Shown here one piece after another: positions 1,102 through 36,933 of a stretch of 39,545 bases of DNA. Position 1 is the first letter of the stretch, and every line of letters begins with the position of its first letter. The stretch is from a virus (lineage: Duplodnaviria; Heunggongvirae; Uroviricota; Caudoviricetes): IMG/VR virus record IMGVR_UViG_2913152634_000006; one strand, written 5' to 3'. The notes under the pieces are model-generated. The model made no database searches. It was given only the letters and a program-made list of their open reading frames with translations, and was not told where the DNA came from. Made by a program: the position numbers and the translations under genes.

Positions 1102-1440
1102 TCAGCGGGATAATTTTTGGATTGTTTCGGTTGAAACGCGATCTCCCTCCGAATTGCAGGAACCATCAAGAGAGAGAGCCGGAGAAATTTGCCCGACCTC
1201 CGGCATCGTTTCATCTGTTGATAACCAATAAGCATACTTCTTAAATTTAGGGTGTTTCGTAACCTTAAGTAAGGCACCCTCTGTTACTTGCTTCCCCCTC
1301 ACCTCATAGTTAGTTACCGTCCCATAAGGCAGCCCAACACAATCCGCAAACTCCTGGCGGGTCATACCTTCTGCTTCACGAATCAGGCGAAATTTTTCAC
1401 CCATGCTTGACAAAGATGCCATATCGGGCATATCCTCCAT
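1102..1440 (-). CDS. Immunity repressor (P2 C-type, XRE-family HTH)
   Basis: ORF track 1102..1476; HTH-like segment MTRQEFADCVGLPYGTVTNYE; start placed at internal ATG (MEDMPDMASL...) at 1440, ATG at 1476 is the alternative; transcribed divergently from cox as in the P2 immunity switch. Confidence 0.7.
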   Translation of the reverse strand: MEDMPDMASLSSMGEKFRLIREAEGMTRQEFADCVGLPYGTVTNYEVRGKQVTEGALLKVTKHPKFKKYAYWLSTDETMPEVGQISPALSLDGSCNSEGDRVSTETIQKLSR

Positions 1441-3582: not shown

Positions 3583-3824
3583 CCATTCTGGACTATATCG
3601 CCGCCAATCCGGGGTGTAGCGGTGGAGAAATCGCCGCAGCACTGAATACCCCAACCACAGCCATTAATGCGGAGTTACGCCGACTCTGGCGCAGCGGTTC
3701 AGTCATAAGAAAAGAGCGCAAAACAGGCGGTCGCTTTTCTTACCAGATAAACCCGATGCCGTTCGGGTGCGGCAATCCACTTACCAACACGTTTAACCAG
3801 CTACTGAAGGAAGCCAGAGCATGA
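3579..3824 (+). CDS. Putative small winged-helix DNA-binding protein
   Basis: 81-aa ORF, ATGA overlap with the upstream gene; DYIAANPGCSGGEIAAALNTPTTAINAELRRL resembles a winged-HTH recognition unit (motif-level inference only). Confidence 0.5.
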   Translation: MTILDYIAANPGCSGGEIAAALNTPTTAINAELRRLWRSGSVIRKERKTGGRFSYQINPMPFGCGNPLTNTFNQLLKEARA

Positions 3825-4120
3825 GCACCATCAACCACCAGAAGCTACGCGAACTGGCATTTGCCCTGCAACGAATGGCAACGCCTCAAAAATTACTGGC
3901 ATTTCGCGCAATGCTCTCGCCGTCTGCTGTGCTGGCACTGCTGAATGAGCTGGAGCACGCCAGAACCACGGCTCCTGCCATTCGCCTGACGCTCCATCAT
4001 GAAATCGCTGATTTCTGCGCGACGTTGGAGGCGCCGGGCGAACCGGAAACGCCGGAAGCAATACAGCAAGAGCTGCTGCAACGCATTGACAAGGTTTTTG
4101 ATTTTTTTCTGAACCAGTAA
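3821..4120 (+). CDS. Hypothetical early protein
   Basis: 99-aa ORF, ATGA overlap with the upstream gene, protein-like composition. Confidence 0.55.
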   Translation: MSTINHQKLRELAFALQRMATPQKLLAFRAMLSPSAVLALLNELEHARTTAPAIRLTLHHEIADFCATLEAPGEPETPEAIQQELLQRIDKVFDFFLNQ

Positions 4121-4242
4121 GAAACCAGAACATGCACACACAAAAAAACCGCTTGCCATGCCGCAATCAGTCAGGTTACATTTCCGCTGCACCTCATAAA
4201 ACGGGTGCCGGGATTTCCACCCCGCTGACAACTACAGCGCAC

Positions 4243-4265
4243 AACCGCGCCAGCGGTTTTTTTGT
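4243..4265 (+). terminator. Terminator-like hairpin (aACCGCgccaGCGGTt) followed by a T7 run inside the early region
   Basis: Directly read 6-bp GC-rich stem, 4-nt loop and ttttttt; lies in a 320-nt stretch without a convincing CDS. Confidence 0.35.
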
Positions 4266-4442
4266 GCGTACTGTATCGCCACGTCTTTTTCGCACACGAA
4301 TTATGGTGGGGCGTACGGGGCCGACTTCGGTCGGGCCGGGTTCTGTAGTTGCCGGTTGTGGAAACCCTGTACGTCTCACCACCCCGAGTTTTCCACCTCT
4401 GGATGGTGAGTTTTCAAAACTTGCAACTACAGAGGCCACACC

Positions 4443-4673
4443 ATGGCAAACCGCAAACAGCACCGCGCTATCGCGGAGCGTCGTCACATCCAGACTGAAA
4501 TCAACCGCAGACTTTTCCGCGCATCACGCGTCGCGCAAATCATGCACATCAATATGCTGCATGAGCGCAGCCACGCACTATCAAACATCTATTCCGCCGC
4601 TGTTTTCAGCTATCTGGCGGATGATCTGCACGAGCTTCAACAGCTCATCCAGCAGCAAAACAAACTCCATTAA
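4443..4673 (+). CDS. Hypothetical early protein
   Basis: 76-aa ORF with helical, protein-like composition; preferred over the overlapping 205-aa ORF 4132..4749, whose translation is S/T/P/R-rich and looks off-frame. Confidence 0.45.
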   Translation: MANRKQHRAIAERRHIQTEINRRLFRASRVAQIMHINMLHERSHALSNIYSAAVFSYLADDLHELQQLIQQQNKLH

Positions 4674-4745
4674 TTCCTGTTCCGGGCCTTTCCTGCACCT
4701 TGCGGCGGGAGGCCTTCGCACATCTGTAACAAGAGGATTGCCGCA

Positions 4746-5111
4746 ATGATTCTCGCCAACGACTTTCTTGAATACCTGCTCAACACAGAGCGTGATCTTG
4801 CCGTTCACGTGCGTGAACGTTATGACATGTACCTGAAATCCCTGCCTGTACCGCAGCTCGCTGACGGAAAGATTGTTATTGATGGTCGCTACATGATTGA
4901 CAGCCACGAGGGAAATTACAGGCTTTACCGCATTGAAGGTGGCACCCCGTCCGTTATTGGCATTTACCAGCGCCCATCCTCTGCAATCGTCGATGTGATT
5001 GCCGACAGCATCCGCATCACACATCGCCATGCCGACACAGAAGACACCGTGCTGGAAATTCAGCGGCTGGCTGCCGTCTGCCGCGACACCCTGAATGGCA
5101 TGACGAAGTAA
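4746..5111 (+). CDS. Hypothetical early protein preceding the replication gene
   Basis: 121-aa ORF, ends 6 nt before the gene A start. Confidence 0.55.
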   Translation: MILANDFLEYLLNTERDLAVHVRERYDMYLKSLPVPQLADGKIVIDGRYMIDSHEGNYRLYRIEGGTPSVIGIYQRPSSAIVDVIADSIRITHRHADTEDTVLEIQRLAAVCRDTLNGMTK

Positions 5112-5117
5112 ATCACT

Positions 5118-7943
5118 ATGACGGCAGAGTACATCAGGGACTGGCAACAACCGCGCCACGCAGTGGGACGTGAAGGAACGGGGATCCCCGTTCCTGAATC
5201 TGCGCTTTCCTCCTGGCTGGATGCCTACCGGGCAGAGAACGAGCGCCGCCAGGAAATGGCTGATGCGGCGTTCTCCGCCACGCCGCTGGGCAACCTGATT
5301 AATAAAAGCCTGGACGCACAGGAAAAACAGGACAAAACCATCACACTGGCAGGAGACGCCAGAAAACAGGCACGCGGCGCGGTGGATGAAGCCATGGCCT
5401 CGCTGCGCCTGCTGCCGTCCTATCTGCGCGATCCGCTTATTCGCCACCTCTCCTTCCTGCGCAAAAAACAGGAAGTCGATCGCCGGAAAGGCAAAAAGAG
5501 CTGGCAGGCTGAACGCTACGCGCGCGGAACCCTGCGCAAAATATTCGAACGTCTGGACCGCACCGACCACCGCTGGCTGACACCGGGTTATCGCTCCCTT
5601 GCCGGACGCGAACGCCTGGATGATTTGCTTTACCTGCCGCAGCTCAACAAGCACCAGATACAGACGCTGGCCACCATGACGGCGGCGATGTTCAGCAGCA
5701 CCTTCGAAAAACTCTGCGATGGCTTTGGCGCGACTGATGGCGAACTGACCATGGATGTAACGCTGAAGGCGTATCAGATGCTGGCCCGCATGGCGTTACA
5801 CCTGCACGCCATGCCTCCACATTATGACGCACTGACAACAGACAAAGACCGGAGGAACGAACCGGACACGGAGCTGCTGCCGGGCGCAATCCTTCGCCTG
5901 ACCTGTGCGGAATGGTGGAAACGCAAACTGTGGCTGTTACGTTGCGAGTGGAGAGAAGAACAACTCCGCGCCGCCTGTCTGGTTTCCAGAAAAACATCAC
6001 CCTATCTGAGCCAGGACGCGTTAAGCGAGTTTCGCGCACAGCGCGAGAAAACACGCGATTTCCTGAAAAGTTTCATGCTGGAAAATGAAGACGGGTTCAC
6101 GATTGATCTCGAGACAGTGTATTACGCGGGAGTAAGTAACCCGGTTCACCGTAAGGCAGAAATGATGGCCACCATGAAGGGACTGGAACTTCTGGCCGAA
6201 GCCCGTGGCGACAGAGCGGTGTTTCTGACCGTCACCTGCCCGTCAAAATACCACGCCACAACGGAGAACGGTCATCCGAACCCCAAATGGAACGGGGCCA
6301 CCATGCGCGACTCCAGCGATTACCTGGTTAACACGTTTTTTGCGGCGGTCCGCAAGAAACTGAACCGCGACGGCCTGCGCTGGTATGGCATCCGCACGGT
6401 GGAGCCTCACCATGACGGCACCGTGCACTGGCATATGATGGTCTTTGCTCATCCGGAAGAAATCGACACCATTGTGTCCCACACCCGCGATATTGCCATT
6501 CAGGAAGATCGTCACGAGCTGGGTGATGATATTACCCCACGCTTTAAGGCGGAGTACGTCGACGGCTCAAAAGGCACACCGACCAGCTACATCGCCACCT
6601 ACATTGGGAAAAACCTGGACAGCCGTGCCGTGGATGGCATCGACCCGAAAACGGGCAAGCCACGCGTTGACCACGAAACAGGTAAATCAATGGCCGAGAG
6701 CGTGGAGCGCGCCATCGGCTGGGCGCGCCTTCACCGGGTCCGTCAGTTCCAGTTCTTTGGCATCCCCTCCCGTCAGGTGTGGCGTGAACTGCGCCGCCTT
6801 GCCAGCCAGATGGCACGCAATCCGGAAGGCCCGCAACGGCTGAAAGATGATGCAATGGATGCGGTACTCGCTGCCGCCGATGCCGGGTGTTTTGCCACCT
6901 ACATTGAAAAACAGGGTGGCGTGCTTGTTCCACGCAAGGACTACCTGATTCGCACCGCCTACGACCTCGCAGATGAGCTGAACGATTACGGCGAACAGAG
7001 CGTACAGATTTACGGGATCTGGTCACCACTCATCGGGGAATCCTCCCGTGTGTGCACGCATCCGGATAACTGGAAGTTGGTAAGACGTAAACCAGAACCA
7101 GAAGACAACGCCCACGAAAATGGTTTTGACCTTCAGGGCGGCCCTGCCGCCCCTTGGACTCGTGGCAATAACTGTCCCCGTGTACAGGAAACAGGCAACA
7201 GCGGGACAGAACAGTCGAAAGAACGGCCTGCACCGTGGCCGCAGCTTCCTGACGGCGTTGAAGTGAACGAATGGATGCGCTCACTGAAACGGCACGAACG
7301 CCGGGCGCTGATGCGTTCGCTTCGTGACAAACAGGCAAAAAACAGCAGTGATGAAATGCAGAGCTGGACACAGAGCCGCAAACAGCAGCGGCCTTTGCCT
7401 GATAACCACGAATTACTCGCTAAAGAATGGCGGGAATCTGCCGAATCTCTCGGCCTGCATATCGGTGAACAGCAGATGCAGCACCTGTTACGGGGAGGCA
7501 GCCTGTACGTTGACGGCAGCATCATTGCACCGCAGGGATTTGAAATTGTACGCAAACCGGATACCCGCCCGGCCAGCCGAATCACGCAGCTCTGGCAGCG
7601 CCTGAGCCGTAATCACGGCGTAAGCAGCACAGAGATCCGTCATAACCCGGTCGCCAGCTATCTGGCACAGCTGGGGGCATCAGACCCCGAAGCCGCCGCA
7701 CGTCTGGCATCCACACTTCAGCAGGACCAGAACACCATGAAAACCCCCGTTACCGTGCTTTCTGACATGCTGCGCGCCATCCGTGACGCAGAGCACGCAC
7801 AAAGAATCAATGAAACCACTGAACGCGCCCGCCACAAGGCTACTTTGCTCCAAAAGAGAGGCAAACAGCACTTTAGTAATCAAAATGATGATGAGAAAAA
7901 ACAATTGCAAAGTTGGATATGCCTTTTCCATCATGAGGGATGA
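5118..7943 (+). CDS. A: Replication initiation endonuclease A (HUH rolling-circle initiator)
   Basis: 941 aa; HUH motif in GTVHWHMMVFAHP and paired catalytic tyrosines YIATYIGKN (Y-x3-Y) as in P2 gpA; position after the early operon; longer than P2 A (recalled 761 aa), with the 3' end running into AT-rich DNA. Confidence 0.85.
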   Translation: MTAEYIRDWQQPRHAVGREGTGIPVPESALSSWLDAYRAENERRQEMADAAFSATPLGNLINKSLDAQEKQDKTITLAGDARKQARGAVDEAMASLRLLPSYLRDPLIRHLSFLRKKQEVDRRKGKKSWQAERYARGTLRKIFERLDRTDHRWLTPGYRSLAGRERLDDLLYLPQLNKHQIQTLATMTAAMFSSTFEKLCDGFGATDGELTMDVTLKAYQMLARMALHLHAMPPHYDALTTDKDRRNEPDTELLPGAILRLTCAEWWKRKLWLLRCEWREEQLRAACLVSRKTSPYLSQDALSEFRAQREKTRDFLKSFMLENEDGFTIDLETVYYAGVSNPVHRKAEMMATMKGLELLAEARGDRAVFLTVTCPSKYHATTENGHPNPKWNGATMRDSSDYLVNTFFAAVRKKLNRDGLRWYGIRTVEPHHDGTVHWHMMVFAHPEEIDTIVSHTRDIAIQEDRHELGDDITPRFKAEYVDGSKGTPTSYIATYIGKNLDSRAVDGIDPKTGKPRVDHETGKSMAESVERAIGWARLHRVRQFQFFGIPSRQVWRELRRLASQMARNPEGPQRLKDDAMDAVLAAADAGCFATYIEKQGGVLVPRKDYLIRTAYDLADELNDYGEQSVQIYGIWSPLIGESSRVCTHPDNWKLVRRKPEPEDNAHENGFDLQGGPAAPWTRGNNCPRVQETGNSGTEQSKERPAPWPQLPDGVEVNEWMRSLKRHERRALMRSLRDKQAKNSSDEMQSWTQSRKQQRPLPDNHELLAKEWRESAESLGLHIGEQQMQHLLRGGSLYVDGSIIAPQGFEIVRKPDTRPASRITQLWQRLSRNHGVSSTEIRHNPVASYLAQLGASDPEAAARLASTLQQDQNTMKTPVTVLSDMLRAIRDAEHAQRINETTERARHKATLLQKRGKQHFSNQNDDEKKQLQSWICLFHHEG

Positions 7944-8128
7944 GATGTGAATCGCTAACCGAATATTGTGTTGAATAGAATGCAATTGATATAATTCCCC
8001 TTAATTCATTGAAAACTGGATTTTTTGCATAACTATGCAAATATCTATGGACGGCGACGATGTTTTTTATCGGGAAAACTCAAGTGCCATGTTAAGATTA
8101 TGTTTATTTTTTACTGAGAAAATCGTGG

Positions 8129-8974
8129 ATGACAAAGCCTTCTCATTTTAGAACCCCTCTTCGTTATCCGGGAGGTAAGGCAAAATTCTTGCCACATATT
8201 GAACAAATACTCCGCAACAATGATCTCATTGGTGGATGTTATGCTGAACCTTATGCAGGTGGAGCCGGTGTAGCATTAGGTTTGCTCCTTAACGGTCTTG
8301 TTGAAAATATCTTCATAAATGATATTGATCCTGCCATTTATTCTTTTTGGTTTGCAGTGGTTAATCATAACGATCTGTTATGTGAAATGATTGATGAAGT
8401 TCCTGTGACTATTGAAAATTGGCATACTCAAAAGGAGATACTCCTAAACAATGATAAATATAGTATGCTTGAAGTCGCATTATCTACTTTCTTTTTAAAT
8501 AGAACAAACCGTTCAGGAATACTTAAGGCTGGCGTTATTGGAGGGAAAGAACAAAAAGGACCATGGAAGTTAGATGCAAGATTCAACAAAAAAGAGTTAA
8601 TTAAAAGGATTGAACTAATTGGTGCATATAAGGAGAAAATTTACGTATCGAATTTTGATGCTGTAGATTTTCTGCTACACCAAAAAGCATTGCTACCCAA
8701 AAATAGTCTAATATATCTTGATCCACCTTATTATGTTAAAGGAGCAGAGTTATATAGAAATTTTTATAAACATGATGATCATGTAAAAATCGCTAATACA
8801 CTACGGGAAATTCAACTACCTTGGGTTGTGTCTTATGACAATGTGCCTGAAATAAAAAGCATATATCATGAATTCAATATGACTGATTATACGCTTAATT
8901 ATACTGCACAAGATAAGAAAAAAGGTCTAGAAATTATCATTTATAATCATGGTATAAAAATCCCTGACATTTAA
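8129..8974 (+). CDS. Dam-family (D12-class, alpha-type) N6-adenine DNA methyltransferase
   Basis: 281 aa; N-terminal RYPGGKAKFL, SAM-binding EPYAGGAGV, catalytic DPPYY; AT-rich coding sequence with an AT-rich upstream region. Confidence 0.85.
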   Translation: MTKPSHFRTPLRYPGGKAKFLPHIEQILRNNDLIGGCYAEPYAGGAGVALGLLLNGLVENIFINDIDPAIYSFWFAVVNHNDLLCEMIDEVPVTIENWHTQKEILLNNDKYSMLEVALSTFFLNRTNRSGILKAGVIGGKEQKGPWKLDARFNKKELIKRIELIGAYKEKIYVSNFDAVDFLLHQKALLPKNSLIYLDPPYYVKGAELYRNFYKHDDHVKIANTLREIQLPWVVSYDNVPEIKSIYHEFNMTDYTLNYTAQDKKKGLEIIIYNHGIKIPDI

Positions 8975-8991
8975 ATTTAAGGATGATATAG

Positions 8992-10689
8992 ATGATTAAA
9001 GAAATTAGTTTTAAAAAATTTAAGAAACTGATAGATATTGACTTCTCATTCAATGAAGACATCAATATAATATCAGGAACCAATGGGACATGTAAGACAA
9101 CATTGCTTCATTTAATTAGCAATGGTTTCCAAATGCCACCATCTCGATCACAAAATTATTCAAATAGTAATTGTGTTAGAGTTATAAAATCTATAAACAA
9201 AATAGCCAACCCCAAAATGGAAGCAATTGTTAGGGAATCAAAAAATTACACCGATCCGGCAGAGGGAACAAAAGGTGTGTTATTTTCTATTAACTATTTG
9301 GATCATAGCACACTAGACTTCAGAAAGCACAACTCAAAAAATCCAGACGAAGCGCAACGGTATGCTATCAAACCAGTATACCCACGCGGAAAAGAAAAAC
9401 AATCACTTCCAGCTAAACCAGTTTTATATCTTGGATTATCGCGACTATTCCCAATTGGTGAAACTAAAGACGACGCCCTTACAAAAATTCCGTTAAACCT
9501 ACCAGAAGAGTATGTTGGTTATATATCGAAAATATATAATGAACTTTTGGGCATTAATATTATAAATATAGAATCAAACAATATCGGAGATTTTAAAGCT
9601 GGCCCATTATTTGATACCGATAACCCAGCAATTGATTCTAATACCATATCATCCGGGGAAGACAATATATTCATTATAATCAAGGCATTAGTTAGCCTTA
9701 GGTATTATTTTGAATCACTTATTCAATCCACTGATCAAAAAGAAAGCATTCTGTTAATAGATGAATTTGATGCCACTTTACATCCTTCTTTACAGATAAG
9801 ATTATTAGATAAAATTTATCAATACGCAAAAGATTATAAGATTCAAGTATTTTTCACAACGCACAGTCTGACATTGCTAGAGTATGCTTTTCATAAAAAA
9901 TACCATGTTGTCTATCTAATTAACAATATTACAAAGGCTCTGCTTTTGGATAATCCTGATATATTAAAAATAACAATGTATCTGAAAACACAAACAAAGG
10001 ATGAGATATACACAAGGAACAAGATACCAGTTTTCACGGAAGATGAAGAAGCTCGCTTTTTATTTAATGAAATACTTGGTTATTGGATAAGCAAATATCC
10101 AAATTTTGCTATAGTTAGTAATTCATTTCACTTAATTGATTGTTTCATTGGCGCAGACAATTTAAAAACTATTTTTAATGATTCTCATCTTAAGGAAACC
10201 TCGTTAAAATCAATTTGTATTCTTGATGGAGATCACAGCCCTGAGGATCAGAGAGGAATTATATCACTGCCGGGTGAAAAAGCTCCAGAACAATTGATAT
10301 TTGAGCATTGTGAGCACCTTTATAATACCGACGACTCTTCCTTCTGGGAAAATCAGGATATAATTAACAATGGTTTTTCGAAAGAGTTATACTTACTCAA
10401 GATACGTCCTCAATTACAATCAATTGAAACTGAAATTCAGAAAAGAAAAGACAACCATGAGTCTACATCCGGTTTAAGAAGAAGATTAAATAAGAAAATA
10501 TTCAATCAGCATATTGAATTCTTTAGAATGATTACAAGAAACTGGTTAGACAAACCAGAAAATCAGAAATCTCTCCAGTATTTTTACAATGGATTACGAT
10601 CCTTATTCTACCGGGTTACACCAACAAACGGCATTGACAGAAAAATTTGGGATTTTGACTATAACAAAATCATTAAAGAGGATAAATAA
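8992..10689 (+). CDS. ABC/AAA-type ATPase with probable C-terminal TOPRIM-like region (OLD-family-like nuclease candidate)
   Basis: 565 aa; N-terminal P-loop ISGTNGTCKTTLLHLI, Walker B/D-loop ILLIDEFDATLHP, H-loop VFFTTHSL; C-terminal acidic motifs VFTEDEE and ILDGDHS spaced about 55 aa apart, resembling TOPRIM Glu and DxD; begins 18 nt after the methyltransferase stop with SD AAGGATGA; occupies the locus where P2 carries old/tin. Confidence 0.8.
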   Translation: MIKEISFKKFKKLIDIDFSFNEDINIISGTNGTCKTTLLHLISNGFQMPPSRSQNYSNSNCVRVIKSINKIANPKMEAIVRESKNYTDPAEGTKGVLFSINYLDHSTLDFRKHNSKNPDEAQRYAIKPVYPRGKEKQSLPAKPVLYLGLSRLFPIGETKDDALTKIPLNLPEEYVGYISKIYNELLGINIINIESNNIGDFKAGPLFDTDNPAIDSNTISSGEDNIFIIIKALVSLRYYFESLIQSTDQKESILLIDEFDATLHPSLQIRLLDKIYQYAKDYKIQVFFTTHSLTLLEYAFHKKYHVVYLINNITKALLLDNPDILKITMYLKTQTKDEIYTRNKIPVFTEDEEARFLFNEILGYWISKYPNFAIVSNSFHLIDCFIGADNLKTIFNDSHLKETSLKSICILDGDHSPEDQRGIISLPGEKAPEQLIFEHCEHLYNTDDSSFWENQDIINNGFSKELYLLKIRPQLQSIETEIQKRKDNHESTSGLRRRLNKKIFNQHIEFFRMITRNWLDKPENQKSLQYFYNGLRSLFYRVTPTNGIDRKIWDFDYNKIIKEDK

Positions 10690-10767
10690 TGTATTCTAAT
10701 AGGATATAAACATCAAAGCTATATTTTTTACACATATCAAGAGTAAAAAATAATTTAACTTTTACAT

Positions 10768-10803
10768 AACGACCTCTTTTACAAATAAGTAGAAAAGGTC
10801 GTT
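10768..10803 (+). terminator. Strong hairpin (15-bp imperfect inverted repeat, 6-nt loop) ending the methyltransferase-ATPase operon
   Basis: aacgacctcttttac / gtagaaaaggtcgtt read directly, 80 nt downstream of the ATPase stop; no canonical long U-tract. Confidence 0.45.
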
Positions 10804-10928
10804 ATAACTCTCATCTCCATAGCATGTAATTTTCTTTGCATATTTTCACATAACAGTCAGGGATGTATTTATAAGCAACGTCGTATACATAGGCTCAATT
10901 TTTCTATAAATAAGCACTCCGTTCGGTT

Positions 10929-10955
10929 TGCACAATAGTGCACAAATTTGCACAA
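10929..10955. repeat. Three direct TGCACAA repeats at exact 10-bp phasing, followed by a T7 run
   Basis: tgcacaa at 10929, 10939, 10949; lies in the A-to-Q interval where P2-like phages carry cos; candidate protein-binding array. Confidence 0.5.
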
Positions 10956-11379
10956 TTTTTTTGAACGACTTTTTGCCCTTCCGGCCCGCATGGCGGCTGG
11001 ATCCGTCAAGGATCCGTGCGTGCACAAAAAAACGCGCTTTTTCTGCGCGCAGGTGACGGGGGAACAGCCCGCGTTTCAGGGGGTAAATAGCATTCCCTGA
11101 GCGATGTCGCAGCGACACAACAGAATGGCCATATTTCTCACGCTGAGCGTGAAAAAGATGTGAGGGCTTTTGATTTGATGGGGGGAAAGGTAAGGCCGTC
11201 AAAATCGCACTGAGGCGGCGAGAACATACAGTCAACGCGGTAGGATTGCGTAAGAGTCTGACCGTCGATGGTGGCGATAAACTGGAAGGCGTCGTGAAAT
11301 TATCTGATTGATACAGGAGCTGGAGAGTCGGGGCATAAATTTTTTATGCCCCGGCGAAGCAGCAGACAAGCGAAGCGCG

Positions 11380-34462: not shown

Positions 34463-35248
34463 TCAATCACCTATGTGATTACGTTCTATATATCTTACAA
34501 TCTTCTCTAAAGATTCAAATCCCCACCTCTGCATAGCATGTGGGAATTCTGTATATTCATAATCTTCTATGGTGAGATCCCATGTACTTTTCTTGAATTC
34601 ACACTGATATAATCGCACAGTCTTGTTTAAAACCAACCCTTCTAACACACTGCTTTTCTTAATGATTTTGTCAATGTCTTTATTGTTAATCCCAATGTAG
34701 ATAGCTGTTACCGAACTTAAATCAGTTATCTTGTCAATTAAAATATTTTCTTGCTTTTGTAATAGCCCCACTCGCTTTATTATTCTAACTTCTTCTTCAT
34801 ATTTCCAATGCAATGATTTAGTAAGCAATAATTTACTAATTACATCAGCGCTATAAATGTTTTCTTGACTGATTTTTAGTTTACTTTTTATTCGACTCTC
34901 TAAATAATTAATGTCACCTTTCTGTGCCGTAATTAGGCATTTTTCTTCATCATCAAACCCTGCCCTTTCTGTGTCAATTGCTACAACAAACCCCTGATGT
35001 TTATCAGCATAATGTGACCACATCAGTACATTGAGAGGATTTTTAGAAAGGCATAAGCAGGCAACATTTTGATTGATCTCCCCCCTCATAGCTAATGGTT
35101 CAAGCGATTCACCATCTAATGAAAGTTCATAGCCATAGCTTTCAAAAGGATCATTAAACTCACTATACGGAGTGAATTTTATAGAGATGTAACCATCTTT
35201 AAAAAATCGTTCCAATGATGTCTTATCTATATATTTATACAGAATCAT
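34463..35248 (-). CDS. AT-rich accessory (moron) gene, DUF2971-like protein of unknown function
   Basis: Start placed at ATG giving MILYKYID...; LYKY N-terminus, FNDPFE and MWSHYADKHQGFVV motifs resemble DUF2971 as I recall it; opposite strand to flanking D and ogr; strongly AT-rich relative to neighbours. Confidence 0.55.
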   Translation of the reverse strand: MILYKYIDKTSLERFFKDGYISIKFTPYSEFNDPFESYGYELSLDGESLEPLAMRGEINQNVACLCLSKNPLNVLMWSHYADKHQGFVVAIDTERAGFDDEEKCLITAQKGDINYLESRIKSKLKISQENIYSADVISKLLLTKSLHWKYEEEVRIIKRVGLLQKQENILIDKITDLSSVTAIYIGINNKDIDKIIKKSSVLEGLVLNKTVRLYQCEFKKSTWDLTIEDYEYTEFPHAMQRWGFESLEKIVRYIERNHIGD

Positions 35249-35443
35249 AATATATTCAGAATTAATTATAGGTGTTATCAGTATACAGTACTTCAACAAG
35301 TAGATGTAAAGATCCCATTTAAACGTTCCTCCTCAATACGCGGATTAAACAAATTAAAGCATCTTACTCAAAATGGACCATCAGTTGGATTTAGAGCCAA
35401 CACAACCTAGAATAGCGGCAGCACCACGTTAAGGGAGGTCGCT

Positions 35444-35844: not shown

Positions 35845-36933
35845 TTACCTTCGCAAGTAGAAGGTTAGCGCCTCTCCTCTCAGGAGACAAGCGTTTGTAT
35901 GGGTCCACCACATATTGCAATTTTTATTCTCTTTTAAAATATATTCCACGGGCGTCATTAGTGCGAGCGCCTTGTGGGGTCTTTTGCTGTTATACAGCAC
36001 CAGATATTCCGCCAGCTTCTGGTTAAATAGCGCCAGATCTTCAAAGAGTAAAATCTCATTAAATTCAATAAACTGCTCTCTTAACGTCCGGTTAAAACGT
36101 TCACAGATAGCGTTCATTTTTGGCGTGTAGGGATAGGTCCAGAGGTGTTTGATAGCGGCTTCCTGCAGCGTTTTGTCGAAGTTTCCCAGGAACTCTTTTC
36201 CGTTATCTGTGATTATCTGGCTGATACCGACCGGGAACAACCGGGCTGCGCGGCTGAAGAAGTGATTGACGATATCACTGTTGAGTGACGGCACAGCCAG
36301 TGCCAGCGCGTAATTGCTGCATTCGTCGATCATGGTGATGACATAGCGACGCAGTTCGCCCATTCTGAGCTCAATGGCGTCCATCCCAATGAGCTCACCT
36401 GTCTTTACCGGGCGGTAGTGCTTTGGCCTGCGGGGTTTGGCAGACCGCTTTTTGACAAGCAGTGCCTTCCCCCGCGATCCCAGACGCACAGGTATCATCC
36501 GCATTTTATCATGTGCGGCAGCGATCATTCTGCCGATGGTGGAAACACTCGGACAGGCCAGATAGCGCTGTTCGCACCAGGGCTTCAGGCGAACAAAAAT
36601 CTGCTCTTTACCGAGGTTCGGCAGCTCTGTCCTGAGGCGTCGAATCTCTTTCAGCACATCGGGATGCCAGTGTTTTTTTCGTCGCACCAGAGGTGCCTTA
36701 CTGTGCGGGATTAGCCCCTCAGGTCCTTCCTTGTTCAGTAACTGACGCCACCAGTAAAGCGTGCGGCAGGACACGCCAAAGGCTTCAGAAGCTGCAGAAA
36801 TACCGTGTTTATCCCAGAAGTGCAGAGCCTTCATTCTCATTGTTGCTATATCAGCCATCACTGAAAGCCTCAACGCATAATCGGCCGTTTGGTAGTACTT
36901 AGGATAGCCAACCATCAGATGCTGCATTTGCAT
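35845..36933 (-). CDS. IS-element DDE transposase (rve integrase-core type, single ORF)
   Basis: 362 aa; N-terminal HTH-like segment (MKALHFWDKHGIS...CRTLYWWRQ), DDE-type core with ITDNGKEF; the real start is probably an internal Met (MADIATMRMK...); IS family and ends not determined. Confidence 0.7.
   Translation of the reverse strand: MQMQHLMVGYPKYYQTADYALRLSVMADIATMRMKALHFWDKHGISAASEAFGVSCRTLYWWRQLLNKEGPEGLIPHSKAPLVRRKKHWHPDVLKEIRRLRTELPNLGKEQIFVRLKPWCEQRYLACPSVSTIGRMIAAAHDKMRMIPVRLGSRGKALLVKKRSAKPRRPKHYRPVKTGELIGMDAIELRMGELRRYVITMIDECSNYALALAVPSLNSDIVNHFFSRAARLFPVGISQIITDNGKEFLGNFDKTLQEAAIKHLWTYPYTPKMNAICERFNRTLREQFIEFNEILLFEDLALFNQKLAEYLVLYNSKRPHKALALMTPVEYILKENKNCNMWWTHTNACLLRGEALTFYLRR

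Follow-up and report, generated by a model that had tools for sequence, protein, structure and literature searches.

A probable IsrK–C4 RNA immunity module in the early operon of a P88-like, P2-like prophage

The satellite phage P4 has been described as having an 'IsrK-C4 immunity system' (PMC3632133). Its immunity region runs from the PLE promoter through seqA, the CI RNA (cI), seqC and the nested kil/eta frames to epsilon and the replication gene alpha. The CI RNA is encoded inside eta, a constitutive promoter is likewise internal to eta, and eta itself is translated only from an upstream promoter and in coupling with the preceding gene, its translation preventing termination (PMC10111431). 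Related systems have been reported in P1, where c4 represses icd/ant (PMC8198154), and in Gifsy-1 of Salmonella, where IsrK, STnc1160 and AnrP form a circuit (PMC4825925); for the mechanism of P4 we follow PMC4825925, PMC3632133 and PMC10111431. Here we describe a locus of this kind in a 39.5-kb window (39,545 nucleotides, nt, of a Caudoviricetes virus, IMG/VR record IMGVR_UViG_2913152634_000006), which is the whole stretch of DNA that was analyzed; it is given as one strand, and all positions are window coordinates. Positions 4132-4442, together with the target gene at 4443-4673, very probably make up an IsrK–C4 RNA immunity module of the P4 / P1 / N15 / Gifsy-1 type, lying in the early operon of a P88-like (P2-like) prophage.

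The stretch 4121-4442 had been singled out in a preliminary description, made from the letters of the window, as a structured element, possibly a regulatory RNA, that separates the small early genes from the replication genes and might act as an attenuator or antitermination target or encode a small RNA, and an Rfam search was among the checks it proposed. When the entire window was scanned, exactly two matches reached the Rfam gathering thresholds, both of them within 4121-4442 and on the plus strand: isrK at 4189-4263 (RF01394; 63.6 bits against a gathering score of 50; model positions 1-77 of 77) and, after a gap of 35 nt, the C4 antisense RNA at 4299-4386 (RF01695; 80.5 bits against 45; model positions 1-87 of 87; E = 2e-14 over the whole window), the E-values of the two matches being about 1e-11 to 1e-16. 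The suspected regulatory RNA region is thus borne out, and the attenuator or small-RNA reading stands as far as a regulatory RNA and a terminator are concerned, but the element is a curated isrK and C4 pair and not an unknown one. Matches to STnc410, Ms_IGR-4 and IMPDH within 3900-4800 scored 15-17.5 bits against gathering scores of 50-95 and were rejected as chance, and a tRNA/tmRNA scan of the window found none. The same tandem of isrK followed by C4 was found with Rfam in P4, in N15, in six lambdoid phages (Stx2a_JNE121849, 1720a-02, PhiR49_2, P14437, mEp460 and ST64B), in one Yersinia phage and in one Hafnia phage. The early region of P2 gave no Rfam match and, hence, the module is not a general feature of P2.

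The IsrK-like RNA, equivalent to seqA of P4, comprises three hairpins, the last of which is an intrinsic terminator; its fold is at -26.1 kcal/mol (z = -2.8), and the isrK consensus structure displays compensatory changes in 7 of 16 pairs. The terminator (4243-4265, plus strand) consists of AACCGC-GCCA-GCGGTT, that is, a 6-bp GC-rich stem with a GCCA loop, followed by T7, and both stem and T-run are kept in 15 loci. A terminator-like hairpin with seven Ts had been noted beforehand at this place, to within 1 nt, and can be recognized as the 3' end of isrK. Upstream of the RNA, a consensus scan revealed a sigma-70-like promoter internal to the operon (4153-4182, plus strand), with TTGCCA at 4153-4158, an 18-nt spacer and TACATT at 4177-4182, and the transcription start predicted from it (about 4189) is the first base of the isrK match. 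In 13 of 13 diverse loci, P4 and N15 included, the isrK match is preceded at this very distance by a -35/-10 pair, and the site at 4153-4182, which is promoter-like, may be taken as the positional counterpart of P4 PLE.

The C4-like RNA has a core (4304-4381) formed by a 17-bp closing stem, a first hairpin with a UUCG loop (4319-4337), a second hairpin with a 12-nt loop and an 8-nt single-stranded junction. The minimum-free-energy fold of this core equals the Rfam consensus and lies at -44.7 kcal/mol (z = -4.9 relative to shuffles). A UUCG hairpin set within complementary arms had also been described beforehand, again within 1 nt of its actual position: the hairpin GGCCGAC-UUCG-GUCGGGCC at 4319-4337, nested between GGUGG (4305-4309) and CCACC (4379-4383), is the first inner hairpin of C4, and the two arms belong to its closing stem. 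The UUCG loop is not conserved, one allele group having CCAGC-AUCA-GCUGG in place of CCGAC-UUCG-GUCGG, with a compensated stem, and the functional parts of C4, as judged from the sequence, are predicted to be the 12-nt loop of hairpin 2 and the adjoining junction rather than the UUCG hairpin. An invariant CC follows the closing stem and constitutes the sole sequence-level hint that C4 is excised from a longer transcript.

Two boxes lie in these parts of C4, box b' (UCUGUAGUUGC, 4342-4352) in the loop of hairpin 2 and box a' (GUGGAAA, 4358-4364) in the junction, and each has a counterpart on either side. Upstream, box a1 (4214-4220) is located in the loop of isrK hairpin 2, and box b1 (4229-4237) in the isrK linker, 5 nt ahead of the terminator stem; downstream, also on the plus strand, follow the target boxes a2 (UUUCCAC, 4390-4396), complementary to a', and b2 (GCAACUACAGA, 4423-4433), complementary to b' over 11 nt. 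The exact pairings extend over 11 nt for b'::b2, 9 nt for b'::b1 and 7 nt for both a'::a1 and a'::a2. Three copies of the 9-mer CAACTACAG or its complement exist in the window, in every case within 4229-4432, where 0.16 would be expected. Box b2 overlaps the Shine-Dalgarno sequence AGAGG (4431-4435) of an open reading frame (ORF) of 76 amino acids (aa) with its ATG at 4443, and in the fold of the full-length transcript (-109 kcal/mol, z = -4.6) a' and b' pair in cis with a2 and b2, leaving the Shine-Dalgarno sequence sequestered. Two further pairings were considered and rejected. An additional 8-nt complementarity between C4 (4353-4360) and the left arm of the terminator (4240-4247) is missing in the other box alleles and was therefore taken as incidental, and the 5' flank of C4 (ACACG or GTCAG) does not pair with its 3' flank (CCGAG or CACAG), since all four combinations occur.

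Covariation analysis, another of the checks proposed beforehand, upholds both the helices and the boxes. Across 21 distinct sequences, all 567 of 567 pair cells in the C4 helices are standard pairs (100% paired) and 13 of 27 pairs are changed on both sides, whereas slid controls are paired at 34-46%. Among 13 P88-like alleles, a1/b1 is 100% paired with a'/b', with both sides changed in 10 of 16 pairs, and a'/b' is 98% paired with a2/b2, with both sides changed in 9 of 16, against 27-52% in the slid controls for either comparison; for the a2 box alone, 100% of cells are paired in the 13 alleles and 4 of 7 pairs have changed on both sides. In five P88-like phages the flanks are near-invariant and the substitutions are concentrated in the six boxes, yielding three alleles, each of them complementary among its own boxes. 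A larger allele sample, made up of 80 IMG/VR contigs with an epsilon-like gene at least 92% identical, contains 15 box types and about ten a/b combinations, with a and b alleles reassorted, and box complementarity is exact in all types but one (L088). By analogy with the known members of the family, the box sequences would set immunity specificity; the differences in specificity between the heteroimmune phages P1 and P7 were reportedly located in the boxes by Citron and Schuster in 1990. The presence of some ten or more co-evolving box alleles in phages that are at least 92% identical may point to diversifying selection arising from conflict of related P2-like prophages with one another, or of helpers with P4-like satellites, and this conflict might proceed through RNA cross-silencing or through cross-derepression by the epsilon-like protein.

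These results bear directly on the notion that the region is a cis-acting attenuator or terminator and nothing else, with no trans-acting RNA involved. Such a notion can appeal to the intrinsic terminator within the operon and to the strong cis structures predicted for the full-length transcript, but it has no need of a dedicated promoter conserved in position, nor does it account for a tRNA-like processed RNA fold conserved from P1 and P4 to the present locus or for triplicated specificity boxes that diversify together among near-identical phages, and we consider it very unlikely.

A comparison of the a' box (C4 positions 60-66; L015, L006, L026, L008 and L022) brought to light some identities between distant phages. 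The a' allele GTTCCAA is common to Yersinia phage vB_YpM_39 and to the P88-like Shae_phiSM and L026, the allele GTTGAGAA is common to N15 and the P88-like L022, and the a' box of the window (GUGGAAA) is the complement of that of mEp460 and ST64B (UUUCCAC). Identical a' alleles in unrelated phages suggest that the pool of alleles is limited or that phage classes exchange them. As regards the exact a' plus b' allele of the window, all 14 of its IMG/VR carriers are P88-like, and among them there is no sign of sharing across classes.

The ORF preceded by b2 is the first one downstream of the internal promoter. It encodes a 76-aa homologue of P4 epsilon (4443..4673, plus strand; Pfam Derepression, PF25738, 31.8 bits against a gathering score of 27; phrog_3688), which in BLASTP shares 29% identity with P4 epsilon over 66 aa (E = 2e-8), and it is the predicted direct target of C4. 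P4 epsilon derepresses P2 by inactivating the C repressor. Since the repressor of the present prophage (1102-1422, minus strand) is a homologue of P2 C (37% identity, E = 3e-23), a candidate target for the epsilon-like protein exists. The geometry of RNA and target is retained in 13 diverse phages, in which a' and b' occupy the same C4 positions, a2 lies at +89 to +102 and b2 at +121 to +143 from the C4 start, and the ATG of the next ORF is found at +133 to +145, with its Shine-Dalgarno sequence at or adjoining b2. In other members of the family, the ORF at the position of epsilon encodes an icd/kil-like peptide (P4 and N15) or a Rha/Ant-type antirepressor (lambdoids). Such differing ORFs downstream of C4 imply that the logic of an antisense RNA guarding an antirepressor has been conserved across the family, with the antirepressor being swapped.

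Beyond the epsilon-like gene, the operon continues on the plus strand with a 121-aa ORF (4746-5111) and with replication gene A (5118-7943; Phage_GPA, 437 bits), so that termination or polarity at the module would be expected to affect both. In a lysogen, to go by P1, P4, N15 and Gifsy-1, the internal promoter would produce an untranslated transcript ending mostly at the IsrK terminator, and the transcripts that read through would be processed, as in the relatives, to a stable C4 RNA. In P1 and P4, C4-type RNAs are processed by RNase P. The C4 RNA would then pair with a2/b2 and block translation of the epsilon-like gene, and polarity or premature termination would prevent internal-promoter transcripts from expressing the 121-aa gene and gene A. 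For the box copy that IsrK carries, a1/b1, there are two options: it may aid C4-dependent termination, in the manner of P4 seqA, or may titrate C4 as a decoy or activator, in the manner of Gifsy-1 IsrK.

Two variants of this scheme shift the weight to one of its parts. According to the first, which follows P4 strictly, C4 pairs with a1/b1 and a2/b2 while the transcript is still being made and then acts mainly via premature termination, be it at the IsrK terminator, at a Rho-dependent site or at both, and the overlap of b2 with the ribosome-binding site matters merely because untranslated RNA lets Rho act. This variant, which we hold to be a real if less than even prospect, draws on the isrK and C4 matches at seqA and CI of P4, where CI-dependent termination keeps the replication genes off (PMC4825925; PMC10111431), as well as on the intrinsic terminator just past b1 and on gene A downstream in the same operon. 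On the other hand, b2 overlaps or abuts the Shine-Dalgarno sequence in essentially all 13 loci, as in the repression of icd translation by P1 c4, no Rho-dependent site is identifiable from the sequence, and termination and a translation block are compatible with each other. The second variant, which follows Gifsy-1 and which we find somewhat doubtful, makes the short IsrK-like RNA the main regulator in trans: its a1/b1 would pair with a'/b' of the read-through transcript or of C4, freeing the ribosome-binding site and turning the antirepressor on. In Gifsy-1, short IsrK activates orf45-anrP translation in trans, mid-IsrK pairs with the downstream region in an inactive structure and STnc1160 is processed from the read-through transcript (PMC4825925). 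At the present locus, a1/b1 is perfectly complementary to, and covaries with, a'/b', and the full-length fold shows the cis pairing of a'/b' with a2/b2 that sequesters the Shine-Dalgarno sequence. Yet such activation would be an addition to C4 repression and not a replacement for it, the balance between the RNAs is not readable from sequence, and P4 seqA is needed for immunity and does not act against it (PMC3632133).

Some points must be set against our preferred reading, in which C4 silences the epsilon-like gene within an IsrK–C4 module. The transcription start, the 3' end at about 4265, the processing of C4 and the repression itself are all inferred. Taken alone, the sequence would fit C4 acting by a translation block, as in P1, or by termination, as in P4, and an IsrK-like RNA that helps C4 or antagonises it. 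In box type L088, b'::b1 contains a single G-U and b'::b2 a single mismatch. Finally, a P2-like phage is already under the control of repressor C and Cox, on top of which the module would be a second layer.

The RNAs and the target gene share their DNA with a plus-strand ORF of 205 codons (4132..4749), the only long sense ORF of the region. It covers every part of the module, from the promoter over isrK with its terminator and C4 to the target boxes, takes in the whole epsilon-like gene in another frame and finishes in an ATGA overlap with the next gene. Its S/T/P/G/R-rich composition and its overlap with the 76-aa gene had been correctly noted in the preliminary description; the conclusion drawn there, that the frame is probably non-coding, was probably mistaken. 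The ORF matches Pfam Phage_ASH (PF10554) over residues 16-107, marginally so, with 27.2 bits where the gathering score is 26; its residues ~4-122 are also matched by five PHROG families of the 'transcriptional regulator/repressor' kind. Its ATG at 4132 lies 21 nt upstream of the -35 hexamer, and thus only transcripts from farther upstream are translatable in this frame; the stop codon of the preceding 99-aa gene is situated 11 nt before that ATG, a spacing that would allow translational coupling of the long ORF to that gene. An in-frame ATG soon after the stop of the upstream gene is retained at every one of at least five different left junctions. The frame is open up to the ATGA overlap in 82 of 83 complete relatives, with a chance openness of about 1-10%, and it is also open in epsilon variants with 50-58 nt differences; among 41 unique sequences, from the ATG to the epsilon start, 0 of 20 distinct stop-triplet sites fall in this frame, for which (2/3)^20 is about 3e-4. 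Here and in 9 of 13 diverse loci, no stop interrupts the frame over the full length of the module. Three frame-compensated indel events are seen among the relatives, the +1/-1 indels lying 110-175 nt apart and rewriting the amino-acid sequence of entire segments. It is therefore probable, on these sequence patterns, that the long ORF is translated.

Translation of the frame does not entail selection on its product. A test of codon periodicity in the 4132 frame, which had also been proposed beforehand, showed no purifying selection on the protein sequence of a frame that is nonetheless kept open: substitutions in 4132-4442 are distributed as 17/16/21 over the three codon positions, compared with 11/10/28, a third-position excess, in the neighbouring 99-aa gene. 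In the overlap with the epsilon-like gene, there are 22 amino-acid changes in the epsilon frame against 30 in the long ORF per 50 nt differences. A pattern of this sort is the signature that would be expected if the act of translation, and not the protein product, were selected, and it would match what is reported for P4 eta. Several observations nevertheless detract from the likeness to eta and from translation as such. The codon-position counts reveal no protein-level selection, one relative (L029) has its long ORF broken by a net +1 indel, the stretch ahead of ATG 4132 is merely weakly purine-rich, and the long ORF does not share the frame of the gene that comes first downstream ((4443 - 4132) mod 3 = 2) but reads it in the +1 frame, which leaves the eta analogy incomplete. 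The ORF may accordingly be called eta-like in action at most, and would not be a strict equivalent.

The opposite view, that the long ORF is an ordinary protein-coding gene of the 'Ash family' or 'transcriptional regulator' sort and that the RNA structures are incidental, finds its arguments in the Pfam Phage_ASH and five PHROG matches, in the annotation of the ORF as a coding sequence (CDS) in phages 569R5, PhiR44_2 and P884B11, and in the frame being kept open. It is confronted by the lack of a third-position excess, which the neighbouring gene does display, by substitutions that are three-way compensatory changes at the RNA level and non-synonymous in the long-ORF frame, by the compensated indels that rewrite whole segments, by the overlap of its C-terminal half with a better-conserved gene and by the fact that PGAP does not call it. 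Phage_ASH and several of the PHROG 'transcriptional regulator' families match exactly the RNA-coding stretch, and what is conserved in them may largely be the nucleotides of the RNAs, although P4 does have eta as a genuine ORF. On the codon-position counts and the frame-rewriting indels we reject a conventional protein-coding reading of the long ORF, and the view as a whole strikes us as extremely improbable. Public records contain CDSs that cross isrK and C4 genes in the same manner (L013 1141-2292, L014 1147-2304, L010 1441-2304, L016 1241-1924 and L007 8168-8584), under the names 'regulatory protein Rha', 'putative antirepressor', 'Ash family protein' and, in P4, 'cI gene product'.

Translation of the long ORF is favoured on functional grounds too, since the terminator at 4243-4265 interrupts the early operon ahead of the essential gene A and lytic growth consequently needs a way through it. 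Once the C-repressed early promoter fires, ribosomes coupled from the 99-aa gene would translate 4132-4749 across the terminator and the RNA structures, and this translation would override both termination and C4 control and deliver expression of gene A. It is tempting to postulate, if only tentatively and with more doubt than conviction, that P88-like phages possess a translation-gated switch, in which an unconstrained 205-codon ORF read through to gene A is opposed to an internal-promoter immunity RNA silencing the epsilon-like gene, combined with a hypervariable RNA 'barcode'.

Taken as a whole, the window is a prophage of the P88-like, P2-like kind (Xuanwuvirus, Peduoviridae), and over segment 4139-4760, which holds everything in the module from the promoter on, it has 100% identity with phage P88. 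The gene order is integrase, P2-C-type repressor, cox, small early genes, module and gene A. The last of the early genes ahead of the module is the 99-aa ORF (3821..4120, plus strand; phrog_4144), which ends in TAA at 4118-4120. No Pfam match, even at E = 0.1, was obtained for the minus-strand ORFs 4194-4487, 3893-4231 and 3831-4166 or for a 49-aa ORF at 4349-4498, and a minus-strand 'hypothetical protein' of the P88 record is merely antisense to C4. The segment 3800-4800 finds a match in 1293 of 5426 complete E. coli genomes (roughly a quarter), with at least 80% of the query covered in 956, and in an E. coli prophage 100% identical over 3800-4800 the RefSeq/PGAP annotation leaves 4121-4442 blank, with neither a CDS nor a non-coding RNA. 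A literature search found no paper mentioning the IsrK–C4 module in P88-like or P2-like phages.

On its left side (~4121-4135), the RNA module is bounded by a recombination junction, at which at least five unrelated upstream sequences abut a conserved block beginning with ACAAAAAAACCGC (seen with L001 3884-4914 and L018-L097); in P88, two additional cargo genes, for a membrane protein and an SPFH/serine-protease lipoprotein, are present at this edge. Directly past gene A, positions 8001-11000 form an island of 32% GC with ORFs at 8129-8974 and 8992-10689, which encodes a D12 N6-adenine methyltransferase (PADLOC PD-Lambda-5_B, 406 bits) and a 565-aa AAA_15/AAA_21 ATPase of the OLD/Gabija/PtuA type, and which is probably anti-phage defence cargo at the position of the P2 tin/old hotspot. 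The ARS-C101 prophage, 100% identical over 3800-4800, carries ParM and a partition protein at that position instead. A second low-GC patch comprises the minus-strand ORFs 34463-35299 and 35845-36933; a DUF2971 protein there matches the PADLOC candidate defence family PDC-S31 (93.8 bits) and adjoins an rve-type transposase of an insertion sequence. Among the other carriers of the tandem, Yersinia phage vB_YpM_39 has a full-length ryfA RNA match (134.6 bits; L015 149-447, minus strand) about 1 kb upstream of isrK/C4, and the Stx-type phage P14437 has an sRNA-Xcc1 match (RF02221; 79.6 bits; L012 2523-2606, plus strand) about 0.9 kb downstream of C4, overlapping antB2.

As far as the literature search went, the module is previously undescribed in the P88-like/P2-like group, where annotation misses or mislabels it: the RNA region is blank in RefSeq or named 'hypothetical protein', 'transcriptional regulator' or 'Ash family protein' in phage records, and the isrK plus C4 label mends this recurrent mis-annotation. 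It also identifies a 76-aa 'hypothetical protein' as a predicted RNA-controlled antirepressor of the epsilon type, and places the RNA immunity system of satellite P4 in phages of the P2-like helper type as well, ahead of the replication gene and in many specificities. The module thereby bears on superinfection immunity, prophage induction and the conflict between helpers and satellites. Its box-allele diversity and the overlapping, open, spanning ORF are noteworthy, and neither amounts to a new kind of mechanism.

P4 offers the most detailed comparison. Its isrK (8615-8692) and C4 (8420-8507) matches, both on the minus strand, follow each other in the same order as here, at the positions of seqA and CI, with a1/b1 upstream and a2/b2 downstream at equal offsets and with a promoter at equal distance; in both cases a long ORF starting upstream of the promoter spans the RNAs, and an epsilon homologue and then a replication gene follow. 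The present host, however, is a complete, helper-type P2-like phage with gpA instead of the alpha primase, the gap from isrK to C4 is 35 nt as opposed to 107 nt in P4, and the first gene after b2 is the epsilon homologue, where P4 has kil. The long ORF also differs in that it is out of frame with the epsilon-like gene, fully overlaps it and ends in ATGA, whereas eta and kil of P4 are nested in frame, and the box sequences are not those of P4.

The immI region of P1 and P7 (c4, icd and ant1/2) shares with our locus the Rfam C4 family RF01695 and the placing of antisense RNA and target on one transcript. In P1, as here, the first ORF downstream has its ribosome-binding site overlapped by a b2-type target, and what is ultimately controlled is an antirepressor (PMC8198154). 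The surroundings are nevertheless distinct, for P1 is a plasmid prophage with icd and ant downstream and a C1 repressor, whereas here the epsilon-like gene, the 121-aa ORF and gpA lie downstream, in an integrated P2-like prophage with a P2-C-type repressor. Gifsy-1, in turn, resembles the locus in having an IsrK with an intrinsic terminator and a promoter of its own (a promoter-like site in our case) and in that this IsrK is complementary to the RNA further downstream. In Gifsy-1, some transcripts are reported to read through and to give rise to a stable processed RNA, and an antirepressor-like protein is controlled (PMC4825925); these would be the corresponding steps here. Unlike the present prophage, Gifsy-1 is lambdoid, its AnrP is an antirepressor of another type that leads to the AntQ antiterminator, and the net effect reported for its IsrK is activation.

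The anti-immunity region of N15 (CA RNA and antirepressor operon) and the lambdoid Stx, mEp460 and ST64B phages agree with the locus in the Rfam pair, the position of the promoter, the geometry of the boxes and the overlap with the ribosome-binding site, and in four lambdoid loci (1720a-02, PhiR49_2, mEp460 and ST64B) a long ORF spans the RNAs, as it does here. N15 has no spanning ORF, and N15 and the lambdoids depart from the present arrangement in their backbone and in the downstream protein, which is icd-like or of the Rha/Ant type and in frame with the long ORF where one is present. Set beside all of these systems, the module is a clear but ordinary member of a known and curated RNA immunity family, and the class of mechanism it represents is not new.

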